Notes: generated by a model from the letters alone, not told the origin. DNA of 64,000 bases from Candidatus Nanopelagicales bacterium (GCA_041687715.1 JBDNJO010000001.1:6-64005), one strand, 5' to 3'. Positions 37,477 to 56,505 are shown, counted from the first letter of the stretch. Program-made: numbers and translations.

Positions 37477-39015
37477 ATGACATCGTTTATCGATCAAGTG
37501 ACTCTCCACGTATCAGGCGGCAACGGTGGACATGGTTGCGCTTCAGTACATCGCGAAAAATTTAAACCATTAGGTGGACCTGATGGTGGCAATGGTGGCA
37601 ATGGTGGCGACGTAGTCCTAGTTGTAGATCCATCTGTTACAACACTTCTGGATTTTCATCGCAGTCCACATCGTAGTGCTGGAAGCGGAAAACCTGGACA
37701 TGGTGATCACCGCAATGGGGCATTTGGCGAAGCTTTAGAACTTAGTGTTCCTGAAGGTACCGTTGTCTCGTTAGCTGACGGCACAGTTTTAACAGACATG
37801 CTTGGAATTGGAACCCGGTTTGTGATTGCTCAGGGTGGTCGCGGGGGACTTGGTAATGCATCGCTTGCCTCAACAAAAAGAAAAGCACCTGGCTTTGCAT
37901 TACTAGGCGAAAAAGGAATTACTCGCGACGTAGTTTTAGAACTTAAAACTGTTGCTGATGTCGGCCTAGTTGGATATCCAAGTGCTGGGAAGTCTTCTTT
38001 GATTGCTGCCATGTCTGCAGCGCGTCCAAAAATTGCGGACTATCCATTCACAACTTTGGAACCGAATCTAGGTGTCGTTCGCTCTGGTGAAATGGTGTTC
38101 ACAATGGCTGATGTGCCAGGCCTAATCCCAGGTGCGAGTGAAGGTAAGGGTTTAGGACTTGAATTCCTTCGCCACATTGAAAGATGTGCGGCGCTGGTTC
38201 ACGTTTTAGATTGCGCAACATTAGAACCTAATCGCGATCCACTTACAGATCTAGACGTCATTGAAAATGAACTTAAGCAATATGGTGGCTTAGAAGATCG
38301 ACCACGAGTTGTCGTTTTAAACAAAATCGATATTCCAGAGGGCCGAGAGCTTGCTGAATTCGTGTTACCTGATCTACATGAACGTGGGTACCAAACATTC
38401 TTGGTATCAGCAGTGAGCCATGAAGGTTTGCGTGAATTGGGATTTGCGTTAGCAGAGATCGTTAAGTTGTCGAGAGCTGAGGCTATTACTGCTGCAGAGA
38501 ATCGACCACGCGTAATTGTGACTCCAAAGTCAGTAGATGACAGTGGATTTAGCGTCGAAGTAGAGCGCGCTGGCGCGGATGAAGTTCGATACCGAGTACG
38601 CGGCGAGCGGCCCGAGCGCTGGATTCATCAAACTGATTTTGCAAATGATGAAGCTGTTGGTTATTTAGCTGATCGATTGGCTCGCGCTGGTATTGAAATT
38701 GAATTATCAAAAGCTGGCGCAGTTGCGGGCGATGAAGTTGTAATCGGTGATGGCCCAAGCGCAGTTGTTTTTGATTGGGCTCCAACAGTTGGCGATTTAC
38801 ATCAAGGTCCACGTGGTACAGATCAGCGACTTTACGATAAGCGGCGATTGACTGCGGAAGAGCGACTTGCGATCCATCGGATACGTCAGTTTGGTACGGG
38901 CGAATTTAGTGAAACAACTTCTCAGGTCGCGCAGGATGAAGAGCCACTAATTTCTGCGCCACTAGTTTTTGCGGATTACATTCCTGAATCTGATGATGAA
39001 ATAGATGAAGGCTAG
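37477..39015 (+). CDS. obg: GTPase Obg/CgtA
   Basis: Glycine-rich Obg fold ([10 protein letters not shown]...[14 protein letters not shown]), G1 motif GYPSAGKSS and a C-terminal Obg extension domain. Start at ATG 37477 after AAGGAG. Confidence 0.9.
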
Positions 39016-40124
39016 TTAGGCAGTTGCCACTGCGGTGTGGACTGTGTCCCACCCATTGCTAATTCGGCCGTAATCTTTCCAATAGTTGGAACGAACTTAA
39101 AGCCGTGGCCAGAACAAGGCGAACAAATGGTGATTGGACCGCGCCGATCTAAAATAAAATCTTCTTGCGGGGTATTTGTAAATAGGCATGTTGTTGCAAC
39201 TGCGGTTGCCAGATCCAAGCCTGGAAACCAATGTGAGACGTACTCCTTCATTTCACCAAGATGCTTTTGACTAATAGCAAAATCTCTATTGTCAGGATCA
39301 ATTTCAGCGCGATCACTCCACGTGCCAACTTTCACGCCTTCACCTGGTGTGTAAAGTCCATAGGCGCTGGCTTCAAGTGGTGAGCCACCTCGACCATTTG
39401 CGCCGTGATGTAGAAAGCTTGGCCACAGTGACTCATCTTGCATGGTTGCGATTGGTTGAAAATGTGCAGGTTGGCCAACATCAACAATTAGTTTTGGCAA
39501 GTTAACTAGGTGTCCCACAAGTTTATTAACCCAGCCACCAGCAGCAACGACCAGCGAAGGTGTTCGCCAAGTTTGGGTCTGCGTTTCGATGATGGCGTGA
39601 TCGCCATCAAGGTGAACTGCAAGAACTGGTGTATTTAAATGAACATCTACGCCTAAATCCATATTGCGTTGAATCAAAGTTGAAACAGTTTTATCCGCTA
39701 AGCAGCGCCCACCTTCAGGGCTATAGATTACGTGATCTTCGAAGTTCATGCCTGGCCATCTAGCATGTGCCTCATCACCATCCATTCGCTCGTATGGATG
39801 GTGATAGCGATCTAAGCTGATGCCGATTTCGTCAATAGCTTCTTTGTAACCATGATCAAGTTGGCCATTTTGCTTAAGTAAGTTAGCGCCAGTGTCAGAT
39901 TCTAATTCTCGCCAATCAAATAATGCTCGAGCAGCTAAGTCGGTATAAAGCGGAGTTCGGTAGGAGAGTCGAAAAATTCGACTTCCACCATGCGAGCTTC
40001 CGTTGTTATGCGCGACGCCAAATTGTTCCAGTAGTGCGACGCTTCGGCCAGTGTGCGCAAGCTGCCATGCGGTGGCGCTTCCCATTGCGCCAGCGCCGAT
40101 AACAAGATGGTCAATAGTCTGCAA
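39012..40124 (-). CDS. FAD-dependent N-methyl amino acid oxidase (monomeric sarcosine oxidase / MTOX family)
   Basis: [14 protein letters not shown] dinucleotide fold, the [14 protein letters not shown] covalent-FAD Cys context and SGHGFKF. TTG start. Confidence 0.7.
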
Positions 40125-41947: not shown

Positions 41948-42603
41948 GTTCTCGTCGCTTAGTTCTTTGGCGTCATGGCCAGACTTTGTGGAATGCAGAG
42001 AATCGCCATCAAGGACAAATTGATATTCCATTAAACGATGTTGGCCGGGAACAAGCGCGACATGCGGCGCAAACTTTACTTGCCATGAAGCCAACACATG
42101 TAATTGCAAGTGACTTAGAACGCGCGCTAGAAACTGGTCAGATCCTGGCTGACTTAGCTGGCGTTACATTGAGTACCGATGAACGCCTGCGCGAAACTTT
42201 TGCTGGTGAATGGCAAGGTATGACGCGCGAAGAAATCGTTGCTAAGTATCCAGAAGATTATGCAGCTTGGGGCGGGGACTCGGAGATCCGTCCAGGTGGC
42301 GGGGAAACTCGCTGGGAAGTTTCCGAACGTGTGGTTGCAGCAGTAAATGATGCACTCGTTAACATTCCCGCTGGTGGAACATTAGTAGTTGCATCACACG
42401 GTGGTGCGCTTCGCTCAGCTCTTGGACGACTGCTTGGTTTAGATCCTCGGCAGTGGACAATTCTTGGGGTGCTTGCAAATGCGCAGTGGTCAGTATTATC
42501 TGAACTTGATGAAAACATGCCAAAGTTGCCGGACCTAAAATGGCGCTTGCAAGAATACAACGCAGGATCCTTACCTGAACCTGCCATTGGTGACGATAAG
42601 TAA
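41944..42603 (+). CDS. Histidine phosphatase family protein (phosphoglycerate-mutase-like; Rv2419c/GpgP position)
   Basis: LVLWRHGQTLWN is the RHG motif, and ASHGGALR is present. ATGA overlap with rsfS. The start was moved from 41917. Confidence 0.75.
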   Translation: MSSRRLVLWRHGQTLWNAENRHQGQIDIPLNDVGREQARHAAQTLLAMKPTHVIASDLERALETGQILADLAGVTLSTDERLRETFAGEWQGMTREEIVAKYPEDYAAWGGDSEIRPGGGETRWEVSERVVAAVNDALVNIPAGGTLVVASHGGALRSALGRLLGLDPRQWTILGVLANAQWSVLSELDENMPKLPDLKWRLQEYNAGSLPEPAIGDDK

Positions 42604-42627
42604 AGTCCACTAACATTGACTAGGTTC

Positions 42628-42743
<116 letters not shown>

Positions 42744-42890
42744 TGCTGAGCCCACGGATTCGGGAGGAACGTAGTGACGGTTCCCTCACAGCTTCGCGAG
42801 CAGCACCAGTAAAAACCTTCTTCGTTAAAACGCTCTGTTCGCGTCCCCAATTTAAGTTTGCCGATCCTGCGGATCAGCATGAAATCTGGG

Positions 42891-43017
42891 GACCGACGCT
42901 CACTCCGTAGTTTTTCCGCAGAAGTTTTTACCGACGCTCTCACGCACAGACCGACGCTCAGTCCGTAGATTTTCCGCAGAAGTTTTTACCAGCGCTCCCA
43001 CGCACAGACCGACGCTA
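42891..43017. repeat. Tandem repeat with 58-bp unit, 2.2 copies, containing 5 iterated ACCGACGCT boxes
   Basis: The units at 42891-42948 and 42949-43006 are about 90% identical, and a partial third unit spans 43007-43017. Boxes start at 42892, 42930, 42950, 42988 (degenerate) and 43008, giving alternating 38/20-bp spacing. Confidence 0.9.
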
Positions 43018-43018
43018 A

Positions 43019-44068
43019 TTACCATATGTCGCCGAGCGTGTATCCAGTTTGGAATGGATCAGTTGGATCTATTTCCCAGGTCGCCGTGCCAGTAACCCAA
43101 GCACTTCCACGAATCGTCGGCGTGACTGCGTCGTACTGGCCAAGTTTTATTGGATCGGAAACTTGCCCAAAGAATTTTGTACCTAGGAAACTCATGTGGG
43201 AAAACTCTTCACCTAACGCAAGTTGTCCTCGTGTATAAAGTCCAGACATTCGACCAGAAGTGCCAGTGCCACAGGGAGAACGATCTAACATTCCTTTCCA
43301 AGTTTCTGGATCAGCAGTCAAATTGTCACCGGTTAAGACCGCAGAATTTTGTGCTTGTTTTCCTGGTTCGCGATCGCCATTGTGAAGAATCACAATTCCC
43401 ACTTTGTTGATTGCTGGATTTTCAGGATGTTCAAATGTCAACTGTTGATTAACGGCAAACTTGATCGCAGCGCCAGCCCGAGTAATCGCTTTTGCATTCT
43501 CCGGCTTAATTTCTAAGCCAACGTTTCCAATGTTGGTTTGGGCAAAGAATTGACCACCGAACACTAAGTCAATGGGAATCGGTCCGTATTCGGGAACGTC
43601 CACAACTTTGTCTATATAGACAGTGAATGCAGGCACGTTACGAATTGAAACGTCAAGTACTTTCCCAGCTTTACAGCGAGCAAGAACTGAAATTGTGCCA
43701 ACTGCGGTATCAATGGTGACAGTCGTTTCTGGCTCTTGCATTTTTACAATGCCTTTTTCAAGCACAGCCGTGACAGCGCACATAGTGTTACTGCCAGACA
43801 TGGCGGTAAAGCCACCTTGCTCAAGCACGATGATTCCAAAATCTGATCCAGTTGAAACAGGAGGCAAAATAAATACTGCACATAAGGCTGGGTAACCACG
43901 TGGCTCATGCAAAATTGCATGTCTAAACCAATCTAGATTTGCTTCACAATAATCAAAACGTTCTTTCATGGTCTCACCTTTTACAAGGTGCGCCATGTTC
44001 GTAATTACTCGACCACCCTCACCCTCAGCGTGAGCATCGATAGTTTCAATGATTAGTTTCTCAGCCAT
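43019..44068 (-). CDS. Proline racemase superfamily enzyme with a Ser/Cys catalytic pair (specificity unknown)
   Basis: 349 aa. The first catalytic motif reads FTAMSGSNTM, with Ser where racemases/epimerases have the Cys of MCGH. The second motif, DRSPCGTGTSGRMS, retains Cys. Confidence 0.8.
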   Translation of the reverse strand: MAEKLIIETIDAHAEGEGGRVITNMAHLVKGETMKERFDYCEANLDWFRHAILHEPRGYPALCAVFILPPVSTGSDFGIIVLEQGGFTAMSGSNTMCAVTAVLEKGIVKMQEPETTVTIDTAVGTISVLARCKAGKVLDVSIRNVPAFTVYIDKVVDVPEYGPIPIDLVFGGQFFAQTNIGNVGLEIKPENAKAITRAGAAIKFAVNQQLTFEHPENPAINKVGIVILHNGDREPGKQAQNSAVLTGDNLTADPETWKGMLDRSPCGTGTSGRMSGLYTRGQLALGEEFSHMSFLGTKFFGQVSDPIKLGQYDAVTPTIRGSAWVTGTATWEIDPTDPFQTGYTLGDIW

Positions 44069-44102
44069 AGTTAAGCCGTCCTTATCCAGTTCTAATCAGT
44101 TG

Positions 44103-44402
44103 TTAAACGATTTCGTTTTCAGTTACAAAAATCCGCTGTCGATCAGCTAAGTGAGCAATGGAATCTGCAGCGACTGCCTTACCAATATCAGATTCGTAAG
44201 CTGCATCAAAGGCTTCTTTTGAATCAAACCAAAGTTCAGAGATGCCATCAAATGAACTGCCATCAGCTGCCAAGTTAAATACTATTTTGCGAACGCCTGG
44301 CAGAGTTGCGGCCTTTTTCGAATGGTCAACTAGCCACCAAGTTTTGAAATCTTCATGGCTCATCGTTTCGCCACGTTTTAACAAAATAATCGCTTTAAAC
44401 AT
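44103..44402 (-). CDS. EthD-domain protein (99 aa)
   Basis: MFKAIILLKRGETMSHEDFKTWW...PGVRKIVFN fits the EthD / dimeric alpha-beta barrel family. Confidence 0.75.
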   Translation of the reverse strand: MFKAIILLKRGETMSHEDFKTWWLVDHSKKAATLPGVRKIVFNLAADGSSFDGISELWFDSKEAFDAAYESDIGKAVAADSIAHLADRQRIFVTENEIV

Positions 44403-44963
44403 TTACTTCACCTTCGTTACACGAGCGTGTGGTCGGCCACCGACTGAATAAACAATGGCAATCACCATCTCATCGGCACGCGGAGCATCACCAATTGAAA
44501 TCTCTGCCGAGTCCATGTCATCAAATACCCAGCGATCATCCTTGTTTCCGATTGGCATTGTGATTGAAGCGCCTGGTCCAGCAACCTTTTTAGTACCAGG
44601 AATTATGTCTGCGCCACCACCGATTGCGGCTCGTACTGAAGCGCCAAACCGAGGATGCAAAACGGCTGCAGTATGTTCAAGTTCGCCGTCGGTGCCCACA
44701 ATTGCGCCCTTGCCATAACCGCGAACATCATCTGGATTCAATCCGAGCGCGCCTATTGCTGCGATTGCCCGCTTTGCTAAAACGTCAGTAACTTCGATAC
44801 TCATTAGTTCGAGTTCAGTTAAATCCTTAACTAATTGCTTGCCAGCTAGGGGATTGGTAACCACGGCGGCAGCGATAACTTTCACTGTGGCAGGCGTTAC
44901 CGCAGTGCCACTTTCCCGGAGGGTTTCTTGGACAGATACAACGATGGATCGGATTTGCGCCAT
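44403..44963 (-). CDS. 'Amino acid synthesis' family protein (DUF1185), function unknown
   Basis: 186 aa. GKGAIVGTDGELEHTAAVLHP, PGASITMPIGNKDD and GGRPHARV match my recollection of the family. Its stop codon directly abuts the EthD start codon. Confidence 0.75.
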   Translation of the reverse strand: MAQIRSIVVSVQETLRESGTAVTPATVKVIAAAVVTNPLAGKQLVKDLTELELMSIEVTDVLAKRAIAAIGALGLNPDDVRGYGKGAIVGTDGELEHTAAVLHPRFGASVRAAIGGGADIIPGTKKVAGPGASITMPIGNKDDRWVFDDMDSAEISIGDAPRADEMVIAIVYSVGGRPHARVTKVK

Positions 44964-45034
44964 ACTGCAACCTACAACACGCTCGGGTCAATCCGTCCAC
45001 TAGATTAGGGAAATACCGCTACAAGGAGACCTTA

Positions 45035-46528
45035 ATGACTAACCACATCACGCACTGGATCGATGGCAAGCTTTGGACTGGCAAGGCTGCGCGAACTGGC
45101 GATGTTTACAACCCAGCCACTGGCAAAATCTCCGGCACCGTTGACTTTGCTTCAACTGCTGACACGGATTCCGCAATTGCCGTAGCCAAGCGCGCTGGTT
45201 TGGAATGGGCAGCGACCTCACTTTCCAAGCGCGTAACAATCTTGTTTGCCTTCCGTGAGATCTTAAATGCACGCAAGGAAGAACTTGCTGCGATCATCAC
45301 AGCCGAACACGGCAAGGTTCTCTCTGATGCGCTTGGCGAAGTCATGCGTGGTCAAGAAGTTGTGGAATTTGCTTGTGGTATCCCGCACTTACTCAAGGGT
45401 GGTTACTCGGAAAGCGTTTCAACTGGCGTTGATGTTTACAGCATCCGTCAACCATTAGGTGTTGTCGGAATTATTTCCCCGTTCAACTTCCCGGCCATGG
45501 TGCCAATGTGGTTCTTCCCAGTGGCAATTGCAGCAGGAAACTCAGTAATTGTTAAGCCTTCTGAAAAAGATCCAAGTGCGCAAAACTTTGTAGCTCAGAT
45601 GTGGAAAGACGCTGGCTTGCCAGATGGAGTTTTCAATGTTGTGCATGGAGACAAAGAAGCAGTTGATCGCATTCTTACTCACCCAGATGTAAAGGCAGTA
45701 AGTTTCGTTGGCTCGACTCCAATCGCGAAATACATCTACGAAACTGGCACAGCGCACGGTAAGCGAATCCAAGCTCTTGGTGGCGCAAAGAATCACATGA
45801 TCGTGTTGCCAGATGCTGATTTAGATCTTGCTGCAGACTCGGCTGTAAACGCTGGCTTTGGTTCAGCTGGAGAGCGCTGCATGGCAATCTCGGCACTGGT
45901 TGCAGTTGGACCAATTGCTGATGACTTGATTTCAAAAATCGAAGATCGCATGGGCAAAATTGTCACAGGTGATGGAACTCGTGGAACTGACATGGGCCCA
46001 CTTGTTACAGGAATTCATCGTGACAAAGTCAAGGGCTACATTGACACTGGAGTTGCCGAAGGCGCCAAGATTGTTGTAGATGGTCGCGACGTTGTACCTG
46101 ATAGTGATGGCGAAGGCTATTTCATTGGCCCAACACTTTTCGACAATGTAACTAAAGACATGACAATCTACAAAGACGAAATCTTCGGCCCAGTACTTTC
46201 CGTCATTCGTGCAAAAACCTACGACGAAGCAATCAAATTAATTAACGATCACCCTTACGGTAATGGAACTGCAATTTTCACTAACGATGGTGGCGCAGCT
46301 CGCCGCTTCCAGAATGAAGTAGAAGTAGGAATGATCGGTATTAACGTGCCGATTCCTGTTCCCATGGCGTACTACTCATTCGGTGGCTGGAAAGCTTCAT
46401 TATTTGGTGATACTCACGCACACGGTACTGAAGGTGTCCATTTCTTTACTCGTGGCAAAGTAATCACCAGCCGTTGGTTGGATCCAAGCCATGGTGGATT
46501 GAACCTTGGCTTCCCAACCAGCGGGTAA
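45035..46528 (+). CDS. mmsA: CoA-acylating methylmalonate-semialdehyde dehydrogenase
   Basis: 497 aa. N-terminus HWIDGKLWTG and the GERCMA catalytic Cys context are typical of the MSDH branch of the ALDH superfamily. Confidence 0.85.
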   Translation: MTNHITHWIDGKLWTGKAARTGDVYNPATGKISGTVDFASTADTDSAIAVAKRAGLEWAATSLSKRVTILFAFREILNARKEELAAIITAEHGKVLSDALGEVMRGQEVVEFACGIPHLLKGGYSESVSTGVDVYSIRQPLGVVGIISPFNFPAMVPMWFFPVAIAAGNSVIVKPSEKDPSAQNFVAQMWKDAGLPDGVFNVVHGDKEAVDRILTHPDVKAVSFVGSTPIAKYIYETGTAHGKRIQALGGAKNHMIVLPDADLDLAADSAVNAGFGSAGERCMAISALVAVGPIADDLISKIEDRMGKIVTGDGTRGTDMGPLVTGIHRDKVKGYIDTGVAEGAKIVVDGRDVVPDSDGEGYFIGPTLFDNVTKDMTIYKDEIFGPVLSVIRAKTYDEAIKLINDHPYGNGTAIFTNDGGAARRFQNEVEVGMIGINVPIPVPMAYYSFGGWKASLFGDTHAHGTEGVHFFTRGKVITSRWLDPSHGGLNLGFPTSG

Positions 46529-47429
46529 GCATCGCAAGCGATCAGACGGTCGCATAATTGGAATTTTCGCTGTTGCCCTAGGAACGATTATCTGGGGCAC
46601 AGTGGGTCCGGTCGTGAGACTGTTTCCAGCCGGCACCGAATTTCAGTATTCGCTAGTTCGTAATGTCACTGGAACTGCCGCTCTTTGGTTATTGGTTTTG
46701 TTTTCAAAGAACAAGCGTCGCTACACCAAACAAGACACAGTTCCGATTTTGGTCGGTGGAACAGGTGCTGCGCTGTTTTTCCCATTGTTTATTTTGGCTT
46801 TTCAATTGACTGGCGTTGGTGTCGCTGCCGTGGTTTCAATTGGTGTAGCCCCCATCTTTGTGGGCTTAATCGCTTGGATTGCACTTAAGCAGCCACCGGG
46901 CAAGCAGTGGGTAGTCGGAACATTAATTGCGGTTTCCGGCGTGGTAGCCCTGAATTGGCCAAGTGGAAATAACACAGTTAGTTTTCTAGGCGTTGCTTTT
47001 GCGATGGCAGCAGCATTTGGATATTCGATGCAGGCAACTGGAATGGGAATGATCTCAAAGCGCCACACCCCGTTTCAAAGTGTGGCTCCGATGTTCACAA
47101 TCGGAACGGTGTTTCAAGCGCCGTTAAGTTATGGGCGCGATTTTAGTTTTCTGCAAGATCCTGTCCTACTTCTTGGCGCTCTTTACGGAGGCATAGTCAC
47201 TGTTGCGTTTGCTTACGCATTCTTCATTTATGGAATTGCCAGAATCGGAGCCGCAACTGCCGTAACCGTAGGACTCATGGAGCCACTAACTGCATCAATT
47301 TTAGGTGTGGTTCTTTTGGGCGAAATAGTCTCGACAGTAGGACTGATTGGATCTGCGCTCATTCTTGCTGGCTTAGTTGTAGTAAGCCGGCCACCAAGGC
47401 AGAAGCAAGTACCACTAGCCCCTGTTTAA
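46506..47429 (+). CDS. EamA/DMT-family transporter
   Basis: 307 aa with about 10 TM helices and two EamA-like halves. The TTG start overlaps mmsA by 23 nt, so the start is uncertain. Confidence 0.7.
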   Translation: MASQPAGKHRKRSDGRIIGIFAVALGTIIWGTVGPVVRLFPAGTEFQYSLVRNVTGTAALWLLVLFSKNKRRYTKQDTVPILVGGTGAALFFPLFILAFQLTGVGVAAVVSIGVAPIFVGLIAWIALKQPPGKQWVVGTLIAVSGVVALNWPSGNNTVSFLGVAFAMAAAFGYSMQATGMGMISKRHTPFQSVAPMFTIGTVFQAPLSYGRDFSFLQDPVLLLGALYGGIVTVAFAYAFFIYGIARIGAATAVTVGLMEPLTASILGVVLLGEIVSTVGLIGSALILAGLVVVSRPPRQKQVPLAPV

Positions 47430-47442
47430 TCTTCAGAAATTT

Positions 47443-48972
47443 TTAATCAGAAGAAACTAGCGCTGCAATTGCGCCAGATGCTACAACGTCAACAGCGGCT
47501 GCCATTTCTGGTGCAAGAAAGCGATCAGGTCCAACACCTGGTGTGACTTTTCGTAATTGCGCTAGAGCAGCGCCGGTAATCGGTGCGGGCTTAAGTGGTG
47601 AGCGCAAGTCAAGTGCGCGAGCCGCAGTGAAGTATTCGATTCCAACTATTTTGGTTAAGTTTGCAATCGCTTGGCGAAGTTTGCGAGCTGAACTCCAGCC
47701 CATTGATACATGGTCTTCTTGCATTGCAGAACTCGGAATTGAATCAACACTTGCTGGAACTGCTAGACGCTTATTTTCTGAAACTAAAGCAGCTTGCGTG
47801 TACTGCGCAATCATTAATCCAGAATCGACACCTGGGTCATCTGCCAAGAATGCAGGAAGTCCATGCGAGCGGGCCTTATCGAGCATGCGATCAGTTCGGC
47901 GCTCACAAATGGAACCAAGATCAGCCGCTGCAATGGCCAAGAAGTCCAATACGTAGGCAATGGGTGCGCCATGAAAATTTCCATTGGAAGATACCCGACC
48001 ATCTGCAAGTACAACTGGGTTATCAATGGCAGCTGCTAACTCGCGGGTCGCAACTAAAGTTGCGTGAGCAATTGTGTCGCGTACAGCGCCAGTTACTTGG
48101 GGTGCGCACCGAAGCGAGTAGGCATCCTGGACAACTGATGTGTCATTAATGTGGGAAGCCACTATTGGACTGCCCTTCAAGGCATTAAACATATTGGCTG
48201 CACTTAATGCTTGACCTGGATGTGGTCGAAGTGGCATGTGCAATTCAGGTAAGAAAACTTGATCCGTTCCAAGTAATGCCTCGACACTCATGGCTGCAGT
48301 TACGTCAACAGAATCGCACAACATTTCGAGATCAGAAATTGCCATAATCAACATGCCAAGCATTCCGTCTGTACCGTTAATAAGCGCAAGGCCTTCTTTC
48401 TCGCGAAGTTCAACAGGTTTGATTCCAGCATTTCGTAATGCAACGTCAGCAGAAATTATCTCCCCAGATTCCGTTACAACTTCGCCTTCTCCCATCAGAA
48501 CCAGGGCGCAATGTGCAAGTGGGGCTAAATCTCCACTGCATCCGAGGGAACCAAATTCATAAACAGCCGGCGTGATGTTTGCATTTAAGATCGTAGCCAT
48601 AGTTTCAACAACAACTGGACGAACGCCAGTGTGGCCAGAGCAGAGAGTTTTCAAACGAAGCGTCATCAGCGCACGCGTAACTTCACGTTCCACAAGATTT
48701 CCAAGGCCTGCTGCATGCGAACGGATTAACGATTTTTGTAACTGAACGCGAGACTCGGGTGTGACATGTCGATTAGCAAGTGCCCCAAAACCAGTAGAGA
48801 TTCCATAAACCGGATCAGGTGAAGAAGCTAATGCATCAACTCGGCTGCGGGTTAAAGCCACTGCCGCTAAAGCCTGCGGGGAAATCACAACTTTCGCATC
48901 GTGACGCGCGATTGCGAGCACATCATCTAATGTCATACCCGTTGTGTTGATGACAACTTCGGACTTAGCCAT
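47443..48972 (-). CDS. hutH: Histidine ammonia-lyase
   Basis: GSLGCSGDLAPLAH is the MIO-forming loop. The ATG at 48972 lies 6 nt after AAGGAG and overlaps the hutI stop by 8 nt. The track start was 48996. Confidence 0.9.
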   Translation of the reverse strand: MAKSEVVINTTGMTLDDVLAIARHDAKVVISPQALAAVALTRSRVDALASSPDPVYGISTGFGALANRHVTPESRVQLQKSLIRSHAAGLGNLVEREVTRALMTLRLKTLCSGHTGVRPVVVETMATILNANITPAVYEFGSLGCSGDLAPLAHCALVLMGEGEVVTESGEIISADVALRNAGIKPVELREKEGLALINGTDGMLGMLIMAISDLEMLCDSVDVTAAMSVEALLGTDQVFLPELHMPLRPHPGQALSAANMFNALKGSPIVASHINDTSVVQDAYSLRCAPQVTGAVRDTIAHATLVATRELAAAIDNPVVLADGRVSSNGNFHGAPIAYVLDFLAIAAADLGSICERRTDRMLDKARSHGLPAFLADDPGVDSGLMIAQYTQAALVSENKRLAVPASVDSIPSSAMQEDHVSMGWSSARKLRQAIANLTKIVGIEYFTAARALDLRSPLKPAPITGAALAQLRKVTPGVGPDRFLAPEMAAAVDVVASGAIAALVSSD

Positions 48973-50167
48973 GATTTCTCCTTTTAGTGACATCAAATTG
49001 CGTCTTGCCAGCTTGCCAGACGTTTGTAACTAAAGGTACGCCTGGTCGATAGGCCAGGTGTAGGTGCGAGGGTGCGTTGAGCGCAACTAAATCAGCGCGG
49101 CTACCAACTTTAAGTTGTCCAACATCATTTCGACGTAATGCCTTTGCGCCGCCAAAAGTTGCCGCATGCAAAGCTTGCTCTGGAGTCATGTGCATTTCGC
49201 GGACTGCCAAAGCAATCATGAGGGGCATGTTTGTCGTAAAGCTAGAACCAGGATTGCAGTCTGTTGCTAGCGCAACATTTACACCAGCATCCAATAAGTC
49301 TTTGGCGCGCGGGTAAGTAGAGCGGGTAGAAAATTCTGCGCCTGGAACTAAGGTCGCAACAGTATTACTTTTAGCAAGCAAATTGATGTCGCTGTCACTT
49401 AGGTGAGTGCAATGGTCAATTGAGGCGCAATCAAGAGCTGTGGCCATTGCCACAGCGCCAATGTTTTCAAGTTGATGTGCGTGAATTCGGGGGCGTAATC
49501 CTTTTGCGATTCCTGCAGTAAGAATTCTCTGTGCTTGCTTAACATTAAAAGCACCACGATCACAAAAAACATCTATCCATTTTGCGTGTGGCGCACAGGT
49601 TTCTAACATTTCGCCGACAACTAAATCAACGTATTCTTCAGTCCGATCGGCATACTCAACTGGGACAACATGTGCCCCCATGAAAGTAACTTCAGAGGTG
49701 AATTCGTTCGCGATTCGCAGACTTAATGCTTCAGTTTCAACATCAAGGCCGTAACCTGATTTCGTTTCAAAGGTAGTAATCCCAGATTCAAGCATTTCAG
49801 TGCTTAAGTGCTGGATGTTACTTCGCAAATTTTCAGCTGATGCGCTTCGAGTAGCAGCAACTGTGGTTTTAATGCCGCCAGCTAGGTATGGCTGCCCAGA
49901 CATTCGCGCCGCAAATTCTGCGCTTCGTTCCCCAGCAAAAACCAAATGCGCGTGGCTATCAACAAATCCTGGAATTAATGCTTTGCCATGTAGGTCAATT
50001 ATTTTTGATGTTGCATTGGACTTTACTTCACTTGCCGAGCCAACCCAGCTAACAAATCCATTAGTTACGACGATTGCAGCGTTATCAATTATTCCCAGTA
50101 AGCCGTTGTTAACTTCAGGATCATTAGTTACCAATTCACTAATGTTGGTAATCGCCAGACTGCTCAT
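48965..50167 (-). CDS. hutI: Imidazolonepropionase
   Basis: 400-aa amidohydrolase fold with PGFVDSHAHLVFAG and ATDCNPGSS. Confidence 0.9.
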   Translation of the reverse strand: MSSLAITNISELVTNDPEVNNGLLGIIDNAAIVVTNGFVSWVGSASEVKSNATSKIIDLHGKALIPGFVDSHAHLVFAGERSAEFAARMSGQPYLAGGIKTTVAATRSASAENLRSNIQHLSTEMLESGITTFETKSGYGLDVETEALSLRIANEFTSEVTFMGAHVVPVEYADRTEEYVDLVVGEMLETCAPHAKWIDVFCDRGAFNVKQAQRILTAGIAKGLRPRIHAHQLENIGAVAMATALDCASIDHCTHLSDSDINLLAKSNTVATLVPGAEFSTRSTYPRAKDLLDAGVNVALATDCNPGSSFTTNMPLMIALAVREMHMTPEQALHAATFGGAKALRRNDVGQLKVGSRADLVALNAPSHLHLAYRPGVPLVTNVWQAGKTQFDVTKRRNHG

Positions 50168-50170
50168 TTT

Positions 50171-51871
50171 TTAGAGTAAATTTCCGGCTGAATCAGTTAG
50201 TGCGTGGTCATGCTCCAGCATTGGAATTCTGACATTTTTCGCTTTTGCAACATCCATCGCTTGGTCATAGCCAGCATCAACATGGCGAATAACTCCCATA
50301 CCTGGATCATTTGTTAATACGCGAGCAAGTTTTTGTGCAGCCAGCGCAGTGCCATCAGCAACGCAAACTTGCCCAGCATGAATGGATCGCCCAATACCAA
50401 CGCCACCACCATGATGTATCGAAACCCAAGATGCACCTGAGGAAATGTTGATCATGGCATTTAGCAGCGGCCAGTCAGCGATGGCATCCGAGCCATCAAG
50501 CATTGCTTCTGATTCGCGGTATGGCGAAGCAACGGAGCCACAGTCCAAGTGATCACGGCCAATTACGATCGGCGCACTAACTTCACCGCTTGCTACAAGA
50601 TCATTGAAGGCTAACCCAGCTTTGTCGCGCTCGCCGTAACCAAGCCAGCAGATACGCGCGGGCAATCCTTGGAAAGCTACGCGTTCTTGCGCCATATTTA
50701 TCCAGCGATGTAAATGTTCATTCTCTGGGAATAAGTCCAGAACTGCTTTGTCTGTTCGCGCAATGTCTTTTGGATCTCCAGACAACGCTGCCCATCTAAA
50801 GGGCCCCTTACCTTCACAAAAGAGTGGCCGAATGTAAGCAGGTATAAATCCGGGGAATTGGAAAGCGCGATCAAAGCCACCCTTTCGTGCTTCGTCGCGA
50901 ATGCTATTACCGTAATCAAATACTTCAGCGCCTTTGTCCATGAATCCCACCATGGCTTCAACATGCTTGGCCATTGATTCTTGCGCCCGCTCAGTAAATT
51001 CTTCTGGTTTCTTTTCCGCGTATTCCCGAGCATCAGCAAAATCCATTCCGGCGGGAATGTAATAAAGCGGATCATGCGCCGAAGTTTGATCAGTAACAAT
51101 ATCAACCGCTACATCCATAGCAAGTAATTTCGGAAGTACTTCAGCCGCGTTGCCTACAAGCCCGACCGAAAGTGGTTGACGCGCAGCTTTAGCAGCTAAG
51201 CATCGACGAACTGCATCATCTAGATCAGTTGCAATTTCGTCTAAGTATCGAGTTTCAACGCGCCTGATTAATCGAGTTGGATCAATATCAATGGTCAAGC
51301 AAACGCCATCGTTCATAGTTACGGCAAGTGGTTGCGCGCCACCCATACCTCCGCACCCGCTTGTGACTGTCAACGTGCCAGCAAGTGTGCCGCCAAACTT
51401 CTTGGCTGCAACAGCTGCAAAAGTTTCATAAGTACCTTGCAAGATTCCTTGCGTCCCGATGTAAATCCAGGAACCAGCAGTCATTTGCCCGTACATAGTT
51501 AATCCAAGATGCTCGAGTCGGCGAAATTCTGGCCAAGTGGCCCAATCTCCAACAAGATTTGAATTTGCAAGAATTACGCGCGGCGCCCATTCGTGAGTTT
51601 GAAATACTCCAACGGGCTTTCCCGATTGAACCAACATGGTTTCATCGTTTTCTAAAGTAGTTAAAGTGCGCACGAGTGCATCGAAGGATTCCCAATTTCT
51701 GGCAGCTTTGCCAGTGCCGCCGTAAACCACTAATTCATCTGGGTACTCGGCAACTTCTGGATCAAGATTGTTTTGCAGCATGCGCAGCGCTGCTTCTTGT
51801 CCCCAGCCTTTAGTGGTTAGGGTGGTGCCTCGAATTGCGCGGACTGGGCGAGGACCTGATGCCATTGTCAT
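50171..51871 (-). CDS. hutU: Urocanate hydratase
   Basis: 566 aa with [10 protein letters not shown] and [13 protein letters not shown] motifs. It ends 3 nt upstream of the hutI start. Confidence 0.95.
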
Positions 51872-51976
51872 CCTTTTGCTACTGGGTTAACGAGGTACTA
51901 ACCGAGGTTACTGTAGGCGCTTGCTTGATTCTTGGTAAACCCATGAGGTTAGGCTGGAAAAGTCGAAAGGTAAGAA

Positions 51977-52897
51977 ATGACCACTTTGCAAAATGACGAG
52001 TTATGGCCCCGAGCTGGCGCCTGGTTAAAGTCAGGCTCCGATTCACAACATACAGACATGGCGATTGTTGGAGTGGGTGCTCATTTGACTTCGCTAACGC
52101 CAACAAATGCGGATCAAACTCCAGATGCAATTCGGCAGGCACTATTTAGGTACTCTACTTATTCTTGGGAGCACGATTTAGACATCGCTTCTGTTTCAGT
52201 TAAGGATTTTGGTGACATTCCGGATCCAGACTGGGATGAAGGCGAAGCAAGAGTCTTTACCGCCATGGATTCCGTTCGCGGCAAACAAGATTTATTGGTT
52301 GCGCTGGGTGGGGATAATGCGGCAACTTATTCGGTCTGCAAGGGATTGTGGCGAGATCAGATCGACAAGTGCGGATTGATAACCATAGATGCACATCATG
52401 ACATCCGTGAAGGCATTAGCAATGGCTCACCAGTTCGTCGTTTAATCGCAGCTGGCTTGCAAGGCACTCACATTGTGCAAATTGGAATTAGTGACTATGC
52501 AAACTCTCCTGAGTATGCACGTCGCGTGAAGGAATACGGCATAACTGTAATTACTCGCGCAGAGATGCGAAATCGTTCCCTCAAGGACATCATGGACGAA
52601 GCAATTTCAATCGCGGGTGCAAGCGGTGGCGACATTCACTACGACTTGGACATGGATGTTTGCGATCGCGCCGTCGCGCCAGGATGCCCTGCTGCTACGC
52701 CTGGGGGATTAAGTGCTGACGATGTTCGACATTTGACATTCTTAGCGACTTCGCATGCCAAGGTGACTAGCATGGACATTACTGAAATTGATGCCTCAAT
52801 TGATTCAACGGATGAACGAACGATTCGACTTGGCGCATTGTGTGTTTTGGAAGCTGTGGCTGGCGTTGCCAGTCGCAAACTAGCAAGCATTTCTTGA
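51977..52897 (+). CDS. hutG: Arginase-fold hydrolase, probably formimidoylglutamase (HutG), with a non-canonical first metal-ligand motif
   Basis: It lies divergent from hutUIH. DAHHDIRE and DLDMDVCD motifs are present, but GGDNAAT replaces GGDH/GGGH (His to Asn). Confidence 0.6.
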   Translation: MTTLQNDELWPRAGAWLKSGSDSQHTDMAIVGVGAHLTSLTPTNADQTPDAIRQALFRYSTYSWEHDLDIASVSVKDFGDIPDPDWDEGEARVFTAMDSVRGKQDLLVALGGDNAATYSVCKGLWRDQIDKCGLITIDAHHDIREGISNGSPVRRLIAAGLQGTHIVQIGISDYANSPEYARRVKEYGITVITRAEMRNRSLKDIMDEAISIAGASGGDIHYDLDMDVCDRAVAPGCPAATPGGLSADDVRHLTFLATSHAKVTSMDITEIDASIDSTDERTIRLGALCVLEAVAGVASRKLASIS

Positions 52898-52921: not shown

Positions 52922-54352
52922 ATGACTAAATTAAAGAATTTCATCGGTGGAAAATTTGTCGATTCAGTTGACGGAAATACTATGCCGTTTGAGAATCCTG
53001 CTATCGGCGAAGTTTATGGTCAAGCTCCGCTTTCCCGTGCTGGTGATGTTGACAATGCCTTTAAGGCAGCCGACGCAGCCTTCGATGGCTGGAAGCGATT
53101 AGCACCAGCTGATCGAAGCCTTGCATTATTTCGAATTGCAGATTCAATGGAAGCGCGCGCTGCTGAATTAGTAGCTGCTGAAGTGCAAAATACTGGAAAA
53201 CCAATTTGGTGGATGCGTGATGGCGAAATTCCACAGTGTGTAGATCACACTCGATTCCACGCAACCCTGGCTCGCAATCTTCCTGGATATTCAACCGGTG
53301 AATATTTAGCTGGCTACGATTCAACAGTTCGTCGCGAACCAGTTGGTGTCGCTGCTCAAGTTGCGCCTTGGAACTACCCACTACTGATGGCAGTTTGGAA
53401 GTTCGCACCTGCAATTGCCATGGGTAACACTGTTGTACTTAAGCCTTCGGATACGACGCCGCATACCGCATCGATCATGGCGGAAATCTTCGCGGAGCAC
53501 TTGCCTGCAGGTGTTGTAAATATTGTTTACGGTGATCGTGACACGGGGCGCGCAATGGTTTCCCACAAGCGACCAGATTTAATTTCAATTACAGGCTCAG
53601 TTCGCGCCGGTATGGAAATTGCAGCGAATGCAGCGCCAGACTTAAAGCGCGTCCACCTTGAACTTGGTGGAAAAGCGCCGGTAATTGTGTTCGCAGATTG
53701 CGACTTCGATCGCACGGTCGAAGAAGTTGCAACAGCTGGTGTGATGAACGCTGGCCAAGACTGCGCCGCAGGATGTCGGGTAATTGTTGAGGAAAGTATT
53801 GCTAAGGAATTTACCGCAGCACTTGCCAAGCGAGTATCTGAGTTTAAATTTGGTGTCCCCGAAGATGATGGTAACTACTACGGCGCACTTAATAGCATCA
53901 ATCAATTAGATCGCGTTCAAGGATTCATCGATAGATTGCCAAGCCATGCAGAGATTTTGACTGGCGGCAAGGCTTCTCGCCTAAACGGTGGTTACTACTT
54001 TGAGCCAACTCTTATTGGCGGCCTAAAGCAGGATGACGAAATGATTCAGACTGAAGTGTTTGCTTCAGTGCAAACTATTCAAACTTTCAAAAATGAAGCC
54101 GATGCAATTCGGATGGCTAATGATGTGGACTTTGGTTTGGCTGCCAGCATCTGGTCAACAGATCACCAGAAAATTATCCGAGTCTCACAGGACTTAGATT
54201 TTGGACAGATTTGGGTTAACTGCCACTTGGTCCAGGCTGGCGATATGCCAAATGGTGGCTTTAAGCACTCAGGTCATGGCAATGACTTAAGCGCTGAAGC
54301 AATTGAGGGCTACACCCGGGTAAAGCACGTAATGAGTTACACCGGGCGTTAA
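52922..54352 (+). CDS. NAD-dependent aldehyde dehydrogenase, PatD-like (gamma-aminobutyraldehyde dehydrogenase family)
   Basis: 476 aa. ELGGKAPVIVF, NAGQDCAAGCR and NGGYYFEPTL are closely parallel to E. coli PatD/Prr as I recall it. Confidence 0.75.
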   Translation: MTKLKNFIGGKFVDSVDGNTMPFENPAIGEVYGQAPLSRAGDVDNAFKAADAAFDGWKRLAPADRSLALFRIADSMEARAAELVAAEVQNTGKPIWWMRDGEIPQCVDHTRFHATLARNLPGYSTGEYLAGYDSTVRREPVGVAAQVAPWNYPLLMAVWKFAPAIAMGNTVVLKPSDTTPHTASIMAEIFAEHLPAGVVNIVYGDRDTGRAMVSHKRPDLISITGSVRAGMEIAANAAPDLKRVHLELGGKAPVIVFADCDFDRTVEEVATAGVMNAGQDCAAGCRVIVEESIAKEFTAALAKRVSEFKFGVPEDDGNYYGALNSINQLDRVQGFIDRLPSHAEILTGGKASRLNGGYYFEPTLIGGLKQDDEMIQTEVFASVQTIQTFKNEADAIRMANDVDFGLAASIWSTDHQKIIRVSQDLDFGQIWVNCHLVQAGDMPNGGFKHSGHGNDLSAEAIEGYTRVKHVMSYTGR

Positions 54353-54364
54353 ATCTAAACAGGT

Positions 54365-54404
54365 AGGCTAGGTGACTTAAGAGTTGCCTAGCCTTCTCTT
54401 GTTT
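54365..54404 (+). terminator. Stem-loop with T-rich tail between the ALDH and the carbamoyltransferase genes
   Basis: AGGCTAGG (54365-72) and CCTAGCCT (54387-94) form a perfect 8-bp stem with a 14-nt loop, followed by TCTCTTGTTT. Confidence 0.4.
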
Positions 54405-54435
54405 GCCAGTGTTTACTAGCTTCCCCGGAGTGGTC

Positions 54436-55434
54436 ATGGATCTTAAGAATCGCGATTTTCTAAAGGAGATTGACTTTACGAAAGATGAAATCGTTTTCTT
54501 GATCGATTTAGCAATTGAACTCAAGGCGCAAAAACGGGAACGTCGCGAAATTCAGCGAATGACTGGGCGAAACATTGCATTGATTTTTGAAAAGCCCTCA
54601 ACGCGCACTCGTTGCGCATTCGAAGTAGCTGCATTTGATCAGGGTGCACACACAACTTACTTAGATGGACTTTCCTCGCAAGTCGGACACAAAGAATCAG
54701 TCGCTGATACTGCGCGGGTACTTTCGCGCTATTACGACGCAATTCAATATCGTGGCCAGACGCAAGCAATGGTGGAAGAGCTGGCTCAATTCTCTGGCGT
54801 ACCTGTTTACAACGGCTTAACTGCGGAGTGGCACCCAACTCAAATGTTGGCAGATTTTCAAACCATGATTGAGCATTCAGGTAAGCGACCAGAAAATATC
54901 TCATTTGCTTACGTCGGAGATGCGCGATCCAACATGGGTAACTCACTAATTGTCACTTCTGCTTTGCTAGGGGCAGACATTCGAATTGCTTCACCAAAGC
55001 AACTCTGGCCATCAAAGCAAGTGCAAGAAATCGCTCAAAGCTACTTAGCAAAAAGTGGTGGTTCGATTTTGCTAACTGAAGATATGGATGAGGCACTTCC
55101 AGGTGCAGACTTCATCCACACTGATGTGTGGGTTTCCATGGGTGAGTCCGAAGAGGTATGGAAAGAACGGGTAGCACTTCTTGGCGGTTATCAAGTAAAT
55201 GAAATCAGCTTGGCGAAAACTGGAAATCCCAATTCCAAATTCATGCACTGCTTGCCTGGGTTCCATAACGAGCAAACGACTGTGGGTCGGGAAATTGCGA
55301 AAAAGACTGGCATGCATGACGGGCTGGAAGTTACCCATGACGTTTTTGAATCTCCAGCTAGCGTAGTTTTTGATCAAGCCGAAAATCGCCTTCACACTAT
55401 TAAGGCGATCATGGTTGCAACCATTGGCGACTAA
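54436..55434 (+). CDS. argF: Ornithine carbamoyltransferase (ArgI/ArcB-like type)
   Basis: [25 protein letters not shown] and FMHCLPGFH. Near-colinear with E. coli ArgI, including the C-terminus [19 protein letters not shown]. The start was moved from 54403 to ATG 54436. Confidence 0.85.
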
Positions 55435-56505
55435 GTGAGCAAGCTATTTTCAGAAGTTAAAGTTGGCGGAGTTACCTTTAAGAATCGCGCTTGGGTCAGC
55501 CCAATGTGCCAATACTCGGCAGTAAATGGTTTGATTCAAGACTGGCATGCGGTGCATTACGGCGCATTCATAACAGGTGGTGCGGGACTGGTGATGGTGG
55601 AGGCAGCAGCAGTTCACCCTGATGGGCGAATCACGCCAAATGATGCTGGGATTTGGACCGACCAACAAGCGCAAGTGCTAGCGGAAATACCTCGCTTTGC
55701 CCATCGATTTGGAACTAAGGCTGGAATCCAAATAGCGCATGCAGGTCGCAAAGCCTCAACCGATACTCCTTGGAGTGGTAGAGGTAACTTACCGCCAACT
55801 GATGGTGGCTGGCAGGTTGTCGCGCCTTCACCTGTGGCATTTGAAGGATGCGCAGTCCCCGTGGAATTGACGCTTTCTGACATCGCGTTGATTAGAGCAG
55901 ATTTCGTAGCCGCTGCTGAGCGAGCTATGTTTGCAGATTTTGATGTGGTTGAAATTCACGCAGCACATGGCTATTTGTTACACGAGTTTTTCTCACCGAT
56001 TTCAAATCAGCGAACTGATGACTACGGCGGTTCATTTGAAAACCGAATAAAGCTGCTATGCGAAATTGCGAGTGAAGTTCGGTTAGTTGTTCCTAGATCT
56101 CGGGCATTATTTGTTCGCATATCCGCCACTGACTGGATTGCGGGAGGTTGGTCAATTGAAGATTCGGTTGCCCTTGCTCGAGAACTCCAAGCCAGGGGAG
56201 TTGACTTAGTTGACTGCTCTTCAGGCGGAATCTCTACTGCACAGCAAATAGAAGTTGGCCCAGGTTATCAAGTTGAGTTTGCTCGAAAAATTCATGAAGA
56301 GTCGGGAATACGCACTGTCGCAGTTGGCGTGATTACCACTGGCGAACAAGCAGAAGCAATTTTGGCTGGAGATGATATTGCCGCTGTGATGATTGGCCGG
56401 GCTATGTTGGGAAATCCACGTTGGCCAATCCAAGCAGCTGCAGATTTAGGCGATGAAATTCCATGGCCTAATCAGTACGCTCGAGGCTTTACTGCGCGTC
56501 AATAA
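55435..56505 (+). CDS. NADH:flavin oxidoreductase, Old Yellow Enzyme family (YqjM/NamA class)
   Basis: 356 aa with FKNRAWVSPMCQYS and HAAHGYLLHEFFSP. The GTG start immediately follows the argF stop. Confidence 0.8.
   Translation: MSKLFSEVKVGGVTFKNRAWVSPMCQYSAVNGLIQDWHAVHYGAFITGGAGLVMVEAAAVHPDGRITPNDAGIWTDQQAQVLAEIPRFAHRFGTKAGIQIAHAGRKASTDTPWSGRGNLPPTDGGWQVVAPSPVAFEGCAVPVELTLSDIALIRADFVAAAERAMFADFDVVEIHAAHGYLLHEFFSPISNQRTDDYGGSFENRIKLLCEIASEVRLVVPRSRALFVRISATDWIAGGWSIEDSVALARELQARGVDLVDCSSGGISTAQQIEVGPGYQVEFARKIHEESGIRTVAVGVITTGEQAEAILAGDDIAAVMIGRAMLGNPRWPIQAAADLGDEIPWPNQYARGFTARQ

Follow-up and report, generated by a model that had tools for sequence, protein, structure and literature searches.

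The window analysed here is the whole of a 64,000-nucleotide stretch of DNA, one strand, from Candidatus Nanopelagicales bacterium (GCA_041687715.1, JBDNJO010000001.1:6-64005). It contains three tightly packed minus-strand genes, which encode a DUF1185 protein, an EthD-family protein and a member of the proline racemase superfamily (PRS), and two plus-strand genes, mmsA and eamA, which are divergent from them. The DUF1185 gene (AA_synth, PF06684; 44403..44963, minus strand; 186 aa; 1.2e-56) is the first gene of the putative transcript, and its stop codon (44403-44405) abuts the ATG (44402) of the EthD gene (44103..44402, minus strand; 99 aa; PF07110 2.5e-12, with a TIGR02118 match). The PRS gene (43019..44068, minus strand; 349 aa) follows after a 34-nt spacer (44069..44102, minus strand) in which a Shine-Dalgarno-like TAAGGA stands 9 nt 5' of the PRS ATG. 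On the other side, a 71-bp divergent promoter region (44964..45034) separates the DUF1185 gene from mmsA (45035..46528, plus strand; 497 aa; Aldedh 1.4e-144), whose open reading frame (ORF) overlaps by 23 nt that of eamA (46506..47429, plus strand; 307 aa; PF00892 1.9e-30), a gene for an EamA/DMT-family transporter. All five ORFs, their operon-like packing and the spacer lengths agree with a preliminary description of the locus, and profile searches (Pfam, NCBIfam) confirmed its assignment of the products to the PRS, EthD, DUF1185, aldehyde dehydrogenase (ALDH) and EamA families.

We propose, with a probability of a little over one half (about 0.55), that two independent units lie side by side at this locus, namely a hydroxyproline-type epimerase and a DUF1185-EthD module, and that mmsA-eamA is separate from both. 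The DUF1185 and EthD genes would be translationally coupled, with the PRS gene then using its own ribosome-binding site, and judging from the gene arrangement the three are probably carried on one mRNA. mmsA-eamA would form a separate, divergent operon.

The PRS protein matches PF05544 (IPR008794) over its full length (8e-97; residues 10-344 against profile positions 2-325 of 325). Both active-site motifs of the superfamily are present, the first with Ser replacing Cys (AMSGSN). In the HMMER alignment this aMSGSN lies opposite nMCGH of the Cys/Cys proline racemase 7pb3 and pMSGSN of 4k8l/1tm0, and the second motif, DRSPCGTG, is intact and aligned with the second motif of the solved structures. 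The placement of a Ser at the first catalytic position in the preliminary description was therefore correct, since Ser91 aligns with the catalytic Cys of 7pb3, and Cys266 is kept. Ser91, Asn94 and Cys266 were invariant in an alignment of 20 homologues. More than 6000 relatives were present in the protein database at E < 1e-20; a genome scan limited to one genome per species found at least 596 PRS loci, of which 80 were kept and their flanks searched by tblastn with the neighbour proteins (loci are cited below by L numbers). The Ser/Cys pair was present in 80/80 of these genome loci. Ligand site 1 is Cys63 in the window protein, where 7pb3 has Phe; in about a quarter of the 80 loci this site is Asn instead of Cys.

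Two other assignments within the superfamily were rejected. A proline racemase proper (ProR) is incompatible with a Ser/Cys rather than Cys/Cys pair, with Cys63 rather than Phe at site 1, and with an NF010576 score of 280 against 556 bits. The class that has Thr at the second position and works with a 1-pyrroline-2-carboxylate reductase (OCD or MLD2) is incompatible with Cys266 and with an NF047722 score of 273 against 550 bits. By Pfam labels (locus L081), the 10 kb on either side of the PRS gene contain no member of the OCD or Ldh_2 families.

The preliminary description had concluded from the Ser/Cys pair that the enzyme could not be a canonical two-Cys racemase or epimerase. The implication that it lies outside known racemase/epimerase chemistry fails, since Ser/Cys epimerases are already published. 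Zhao et al. (2014, PMC4113996) distinguished three PRS active-site types, Cys-Cys, Ser-Thr (cluster 3) and Ser-Cys (cluster 9), with purified and crystallised members, and assay and crystal structure identified the Ser/Cys protein B9JQV3 as a 4-hydroxyproline 2-epimerase (4HypE) that is also a promiscuous 3-hydroxyproline (3-Hyp) epimerase. In B9JQV3 with trans-4-hydroxyproline (trans-4-Hyp), Ser93 stands at one face and Cys at the opposite one, and an Asn three residues later holds the Ser (PMC4113996). The 'Ser-Cys type' is likewise a recognised class in Watanabe 2015 (PMC4364671), where Phe at this ligand site is described as restricted to proline racemases, Hyp epimerases having a small residue there (site 1).

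The window PRS resembles B9JQV3 (Avi_0518 of Agrobacterium vitis) in its superfamily, in the Ser with an Asn three residues later, and in the Cys of the second motif; the chemistry of the B9JQV3 class is cofactor-free and two-base, and its relatives adjoin genes for D-amino acid oxidase (DAAO), DHDPS and ALDH. The window PRS differs in scoring only 203 bits against the 4lb0 chain, which is probably B9JQV3, and in having no DHDPS-type or DadA-type neighbours in the window. To judge by its residues, it is a further member of an already characterised class and not a new enzyme type. It would act as a cofactor-free two-base epimerase, with Ser91, positioned by Asn94, serving one face of the substrate and Cys266 the other.

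Many relatives 55-60% identical to the window PRS are found in Arthrobacter, Microbacterium, Agromyces, Leucobacter and comparable genera. At the 22 loci of actinobacterial homologues with 47-55% identity, a DHDPS gene lay within 5 kb in 20/22, a DAAO-type gene in 18/22 and an ALDH gene in 11/22; among those 55-75% identical (n = 8), each of the three was present at 5 loci. DHDPS lay no more than 300 nt from PRS in 29/80 loci. These neighbours are DapA-family and DadA-family proteins that score below the NCBIfam thresholds, and the same families supply the 1-pyrroline-4-hydroxy-2-carboxylate (Pyr4H2C) deaminase and the cis-4-hydroxy-D-proline oxidase in the pathway that Zhao et al. used for 4HypE assignment (PMC4113996). 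The canonical trans-4-hydroxy-L-proline cluster consists of these two enzymes together with 4HypE and alpha-ketoglutarate semialdehyde dehydrogenase. PRS homologues 47-59% identical stand in corresponding DAAO-DHDPS-PRS-ALDH arrays, and sister genomes of the window keep DHDPS-PRS. The DHDPS of related actinobacteria would be of the Pyr4H2C deaminase type and, with a DadA-type oxidase and an ALDH, would make up the canonical Hyp pathway. Because its homologues are surrounded by canonical Hyp neighbours, this PRS subfamily is best read as hydroxyproline epimerase, and the active-site and near-active-site residues of the window protein are the same as in homologues inside canonical Hyp clusters. 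The window gene thus encodes a probable 4HypE of the Ser/Cys type, which would most likely interconvert trans-4-hydroxy-L-proline and cis-4-hydroxy-D-proline, and possibly 3-hydroxyprolines.

Homologues 40-47% identical, from other phyla (n = 46), had DHDPS at 8 loci, DAAO at 4 and ALDH at 5. This group, in which canonical neighbours are rare, comprises L036-L080 (Acidobacteriota, Gemmatimonadota, Chloroflexota, Proteobacteria), and the physiological role of PRS there may differ from that in the actinobacterial group. A second PRS paralogue, 36-39% identical, lies 3-4 kb from the Ser/Cys gene in L017, L019, L020, L004, L011 and L047; PRS-next-to-PRS cases were noted by Zhao et al. (PMC4113996).

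DUF1185 and EthD genes stand beside PRS in 4/80 genome loci (L002, L003, L005, L030), and on metagenome contigs the trio was found again only where DUF1185 was at least 78% identical (L094, L096-L099). The trio-bearing PRS sequences form one clade in a neighbour-joining (NJ) tree, and the order hutU-hutI-hutH-(eamA)-mmsA <> DUF1185-EthD-PRS-gpmB-like-rsfS-nadD-DAO-obgE is collinear throughout that clade. The trio is confined to one syntenic freshwater actinobacterial lineage. Since the whole region is collinear, the adjacency of the three genes reflects synteny passed on by descent rather than associations that arose independently several times. Co-occurrence of the three families across genomes, which the preliminary description had put forward as a test, therefore largely fails, the four Ser/Cys PRS loci with the trio all belonging to one collinear lineage.

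Within this lineage a DHDPS gene is present in some members and missing from others. Loci L001, L002, L030, L094 and L180 carry a 298-aa PF00701 DHDPS gene between EthD and PRS; on the 1.09-Mb contig of L180 (GCA_027484085.1) the Pfam labels read Aldedh <> AA_synth-EthD-DHDPS-Pro_racemase. The gene is absent at 44069-44102 of the window and in L003, L005 and L096-L099, and the close relatives that bear it have a PRS 93-94% identical to that of the window. The L002 DHDPS is 50-64% identical to DHDPS genes that directly precede PRS in some 18 further actinobacteria, and the DHDPS of the lineage is orthologous to these PRS-adjacent genes and holds the same position. In the NJ tree the DHDPS-bearing genomes are nested inside DHDPS-less ones; the gene may have been lost several times or regained once. 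PRS itself is under strong purifying selection, with a dN/dS of ~0.02 at near-saturated dS against relatives both with and without DHDPS. At L030 (7407-8419), PRS is split over two reading frames at about 7490, so that the gene is a frameshift pseudogene there or was wrongly assembled. Since the window has no DHDPS gene, its epimerase would use partners encoded elsewhere or act alone, e.g. in D/L imino-acid salvage.

Several observations weigh against reading the locus as a hydroxyproline epimerase beside an independent module. No DHDPS-type or DadA-type gene was found anywhere in the 64-kb window, and the sister clade L007/L010 is likewise without hydroxyproline genes nearby. Among PRS proteins with a solved structure or known activity, the nearest reach 200-221 bits and all stand at about the same distance, Ser/Thr dehydratase-type and Cys/Cys racemase entries included, and the NCBIfam 4HypE equivalog cut-offs are all missed (248 against 376, 141 against 450 and 125 against 442 bits); PRS function is therefore not assignable by similarity alone. 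With isofunctional PRS clusters taken at about 60% identity or more (e-110), the window PRS falls outside the ~60%-identity cluster of the characterised Ser/Cys 4HypE (Zhao 2014 cluster 9). Finally, the adjacency of PRS to DUF1185-EthD, at gaps of 15-35 nt, lasts even where synonymous divergence is saturated, which fits a functional tie as well as it fits synteny.

The missing DHDPS and DadA genes in the window and in L007/L010 mean that the physiological substrate in the lineage could have changed. PRS would then have a different activity, as a proline or 3-Hyp racemase/epimerase or as an epimerase of another pyrrolidine or piperidine carboxylate; working alone, it would bring D- and L-imino acids of dissolved organic matter into central metabolism, and DUF1185-EthD and mmsA would be unrelated neighbours. 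The lack of DHDPS in the window, L003, L005 and L096-L099 while PRS is strongly selected speaks for such a change, as do the sister clade, the promiscuity of Ser/Cys enzymes for 3-Hyp (PMC4113996), the bifunctional Pro/Hyp enzymes among archaeal relatives (Watanabe 2015, PMC4364671) and the rarity of canonical neighbours in other phyla (8, 4 and 5 of 46). We nevertheless regard it as unlikely, because the active-site and nearby residues match those of homologues in canonical Hyp clusters, site 1 is Cys and not the Phe of proline racemases, and relatives with a 93% identical PRS keep DHDPS immediately upstream.

Compared with the DAAO/DHDPS/ALDH pattern of PRS homologues, the window offers only two ALDH genes and one flavoprotein gene of the DAO family (PF01266 4.6e-44; 39012..40124, minus strand), which lies ~3 kb from PRS between obgE and nadD and is syntenic in L002, L030, L003, L094 and L180. 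The product resembles sarcosine oxidase (MSOX) and N-methyltryptophan oxidase (NF008425, 237 bits against a cut-off of 257), and no similarity to the DadA-type oxidases that adjoin PRS in other genomes was found. It is a possible oxidase partner of PRS. The window thus departs from the canonical Hyp cluster in four respects: DHDPS is missing, the sole DAO-family gene is sarcosine-oxidase-like and 3 kb off, the adjacent ALDH is of the MmsA-type, CoA-acylating kind, and DUF1185-EthD stands at the usual oxidase position.

The second proposed unit, DUF1185-EthD, was followed in a census that took in all loci with a DUF1185 identity of 53% or more and no less than 350 nt of sequence downstream of that gene; a further 80 loci for the survey came from metagenomes scanned with an alignment of DUF1185. 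EthD was directly downstream of DUF1185 in 61/62 loci, separated from it by -1 to 64 nt (median about 9). Where DUF1185 was less than 53% identical, 23/23 loci had a tandem DUF1185-DUF1185 arrangement without EthD. The pair loci with a named source belong to metagenome-assembled genomes of Candidatus Nanopelagicales or Actinomycetota. A Pfam census of 139 neighbours outside the trio lineage was heterogeneous and revealed no common neighbour theme: it contained Radical_SAM/CofH_C (6 occurrences), DAO (5) and p450 (4), PRS was not found, and Aldedh was not recurrent. On contigs with DUF1185 69-73% identical, AA_synth-EthD is flanked by a radical-SAM gene of fbiC-like type and a P450 gene, and on other contigs the pair follows a PALP gene, near a DAO-FAO_M-GCV_T gene resembling that of dimethylglycine dehydrogenase. 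The row of fbiC-like FO synthase (Radical_SAM + CofH_C), DUF1185, EthD and cytochrome P450 was seen in L087, L088, L110, L128 and L129 (also L120 and L139). In freshwater and soil actinobacteria alike, DUF1185-EthD is a conserved two-gene unit, whether or not the epimerase gene adjoins it, and no description of this regularity was found in the literature searched. The near-constant adjacency of the two genes, often with translational coupling, predicts that the products act jointly, possibly as a complex.

As the preliminary description stated, the two families have no assigned biochemistry; we know of no mechanism for either DUF1185, with structures since 2010, or EthD, known since the ethyl tert-butyl ether (ETBE) cluster. 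A literature search on PF06684 returned no functional paper besides a structure note and the mentions of TgnF and HcdD discussed below, and one on EthD and hydroxyproline returned only ethidium-homodimer papers. The window DUF1185 protein is a PF06684 member whose matches among solved structures are 2qtp (1.2e-43) and 3byq (2.1e-20), and a Foldseek search with its AlphaFold2 (AF2) model retrieved only these two entries. Its C-terminal half is highly conserved, and it is in the segment of strongest conservation that the AF2 model is of poor quality.

The EthD protein scores above the family cut-offs (PF07110, 48.2 against 22 bits; TIGR02118, 42.4 against 30.5). Its AF2 model (pLDDT 96) has a beta-alpha-beta-beta-alpha-alpha-beta topology and the dimeric alpha+beta-barrel fold, and Foldseek matched it to MmlI, BH0200, olivetolic acid cyclase (OAC) and hydroxynitrile lyase, all cofactor-free acid/base enzymes. 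The best structural match is MmlI, the 4-methylmuconolactone methylisomerase (30% identity, TM 0.82). EthD was rejected as an MmlI orthologue: the NF053569 score is 24.8 bits against a cut-off of 180, and the 11-residue MmlI insertion that contains His52, the residue mutated in 3hfk, is absent from the window protein. EthD of the Rhodococcus ethRABCD cluster shares with it the PF07110/TIGR02118 match and the alpha+beta-barrel fold. ethD accompanies, and is required alongside, the P450 gene product EthB, and a P450 gene follows the DUF1185-EthD pair in some loci, but there is none in the window. DUF1185-EthD would act as a separate unit of two proteins, for which fold and family precedents suggest cofactor-free acid/base enzymes or accessory proteins.

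For DUF1185 the nearest described system is trigonelline degradation in Acinetobacter baylyi ADP1. In PMC7913881 the DUF1185 protein TgnF is reported to stimulate TgnE-dependent oxidation of succinic semialdehyde, whereas a second DUF1185 homologue, HcdD, had no effect when tested. In 5/6 sampled proteobacterial plasmid loci (L174, L176-L179; Rhizobiaceae and Roseobacteraceae), DUF1185 occurs in the tgn-like company of a flavin reductase, an LLM oxidoreductase, an alpha/beta hydrolase and an ALDH, and two of the five also have a small NIPSNAP protein of alpha+beta-barrel type. In the sixth plasmid locus, L175 (Sulfitobacter), genes for a molybdenum hydroxylase, a '6-hydroxynicotinate reductase' and a UPF0280 protein precede DUF1185 genes in tandem, and the tandem metagenome loci L150-L173 share this layout, with a molybdenum enzyme of the xanthine dehydrogenase family first. 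The tandem arrangement looks like an N-heterocycle degradation cluster.

The window is like the tgn clusters, which are loci for an N-heterocyclic carboxylate, in having a PF06684 gene beside an ALDH gene, but genes for a flavin reductase, an LLM oxygenase and a hydrolase are missing, only mmsA being nearby. Its DUF1185 is 35% identical to the Agrobacterium (A. fabrum) homologue, and the ALDHs are 29% identical. By gene context the window DUF1185 is thus not of the TgnF type, the tgn-like set being incomplete. Comparison of EthD with the tgn-cluster NIPSNAP gave no BLASTP alignment and an hhalign probability of 0.2; a link between EthD and NIPSNAP would have to come from a common fold or clan. 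The recurrence of DUF1185 in ALDH-bearing clusters for N-heterocyclic carboxylates leaves room for a link of DUF1185-EthD with mmsA and, at a further remove, with an epimerase of pyrrolidine carboxylates. A functional tie between DUF1185 and mmsA is possible by analogy with TgnF and TgnE. The EthD-paired DUF1185 subfamily as a whole shows no general ALDH association.

The mmsA product matches the NCBIfam model TIGR01722 for CoA-acylating methylmalonate-semialdehyde dehydrogenase (MMSDH) well above its cut-off (700.1 against 448.5 bits, residues 6-481). By this curated subfamily membership it is a CoA-acylating methylmalonate/malonate-semialdehyde dehydrogenase. mmsA is divergent from DUF1185 in every trio-lineage member with upstream sequence. 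eamA beside mmsA is not kept in distant members of the lineage and is absent in L097 and L098.

These data bear on the proposal of the preliminary description that DUF1185, EthD, PRS, MmsA and EamA together degrade a cyclic imino acid by one new route. In such a route PRS would epimerise the substrate, DUF1185-EthD would carry out a cofactor-free ring-opening, isomerisation or unmasking, or replace the flavin oxidase, and MmsA would oxidise the resulting semialdehyde to an acyl-CoA. The gene order of the lineage agrees with it, mmsA always being divergent from DUF1185 and PRS always following EthD at PRS identities of 58-100%, and in the DHDPS-bearing variant DUF1185-EthD holds the position that DAAO has in canonical DAAO-DHDPS-PRS clusters. 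An end in a semialdehyde also finds some indirect support in the reported stimulation of the semialdehyde dehydrogenase TgnE by TgnF (PMC7913881) and in the proteobacterial plasmid loci (DUF1185 with ALDH in 5/6, two with NIPSNAP), and the tandem DUF1185 genes cluster with a molybdenum hydroxylase and '6-hydroxynicotinate reductase'. Against this, the pair is without a PRS or ALDH neighbour in more than 50 loci, 76/80 PRS genome loci are without the pair, and collinearity from hut to obgE means that adjacency within the lineage is no independent evidence. Moreover, MmsA is a strong member of an MMSDH family specific for beta-semialdehydes, and the semialdehyde of hydroxyproline catabolism is 2,5-dioxopentanoate; no redox-cofactor motif was found in DUF1185 or EthD; and EthD and NIPSNAP are without sequence or profile similarity. 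We therefore consider a single route doubtful.

A related idea, which we consider quite improbable, is that DUF1185-EthD is an unrecognised cofactor-free module recruited into imino-acid catabolism in this lineage, where it would replace the flavin oxidase or pass a beta-semialdehyde from a labile ring-opened intermediate to MmsA. If true, this would amount to a hydroxyproline-type pathway that bypasses the DAAO/DHDPS/alpha-ketoglutarate-semialdehyde route. Two independent units, with mmsA-eamA apart from both, remain our preferred explanation.

The divergent spacer was compared across 7 relatives. Only TAGGTT and TAGATT (TANNNT) were conserved in its 71 bp, the remaining spacer being variable. 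TAGGTT stands 5-6 nt before the DUF1185 ATG, and TAGATT followed by AAGGAG precedes mmsA. The short distance of TAGGTT from the DUF1185 start suggests that it may be the -10 box of a leaderless mRNA. No palindrome that could serve as a shared operator was found in the alignment of the spacer, a scan for sigma-70 promoters and terminators gave sites no commoner than in shuffled sequence, and an Rfam search of the region found no element besides tRNA-Ala. This tRNA-Ala(GGC) gene (42628..42703, plus strand; ARAGORN) is the downstream boundary of the PRS transcript region.

Around it, at 42258-42943 on the minus strand, three ORFs (148, 85 and 83 aa) overlap the tRNA-Ala gene and the end of a His_Phos gene or run antisense to them, and they are almost certainly no genes. 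Adjoining eamA, a complete histidine-utilisation set occupies 47443-52897, with hutH, hutI and hutU on the minus strand and an arginase-family gene that is probably a formimidoylglutamase. Farther on (52922-56505), three genes stand in a row, for an ALDH resembling aminobutyraldehyde dehydrogenase (605 bits, cut-off 615), a carbamoyltransferase of the OTCase family and an oxidoreductase of the Old Yellow Enzyme family; they may form a set related to polyamines or agmatine.

Annotation of the PRS gene as a probable Ser/Cys 4-hydroxyproline 2-epimerase, a member of a class that is abundant across several phyla, is justified. The presence or absence of the DHDPS gene beside it among close relatives offers a compact case in which apparent pathway erosion can be studied in freshwater bacteria with streamlined genomes. 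The pairing of DUF1185 with EthD gives a comparative-genomic handle on both families, through which two old unknowns become jointly testable.

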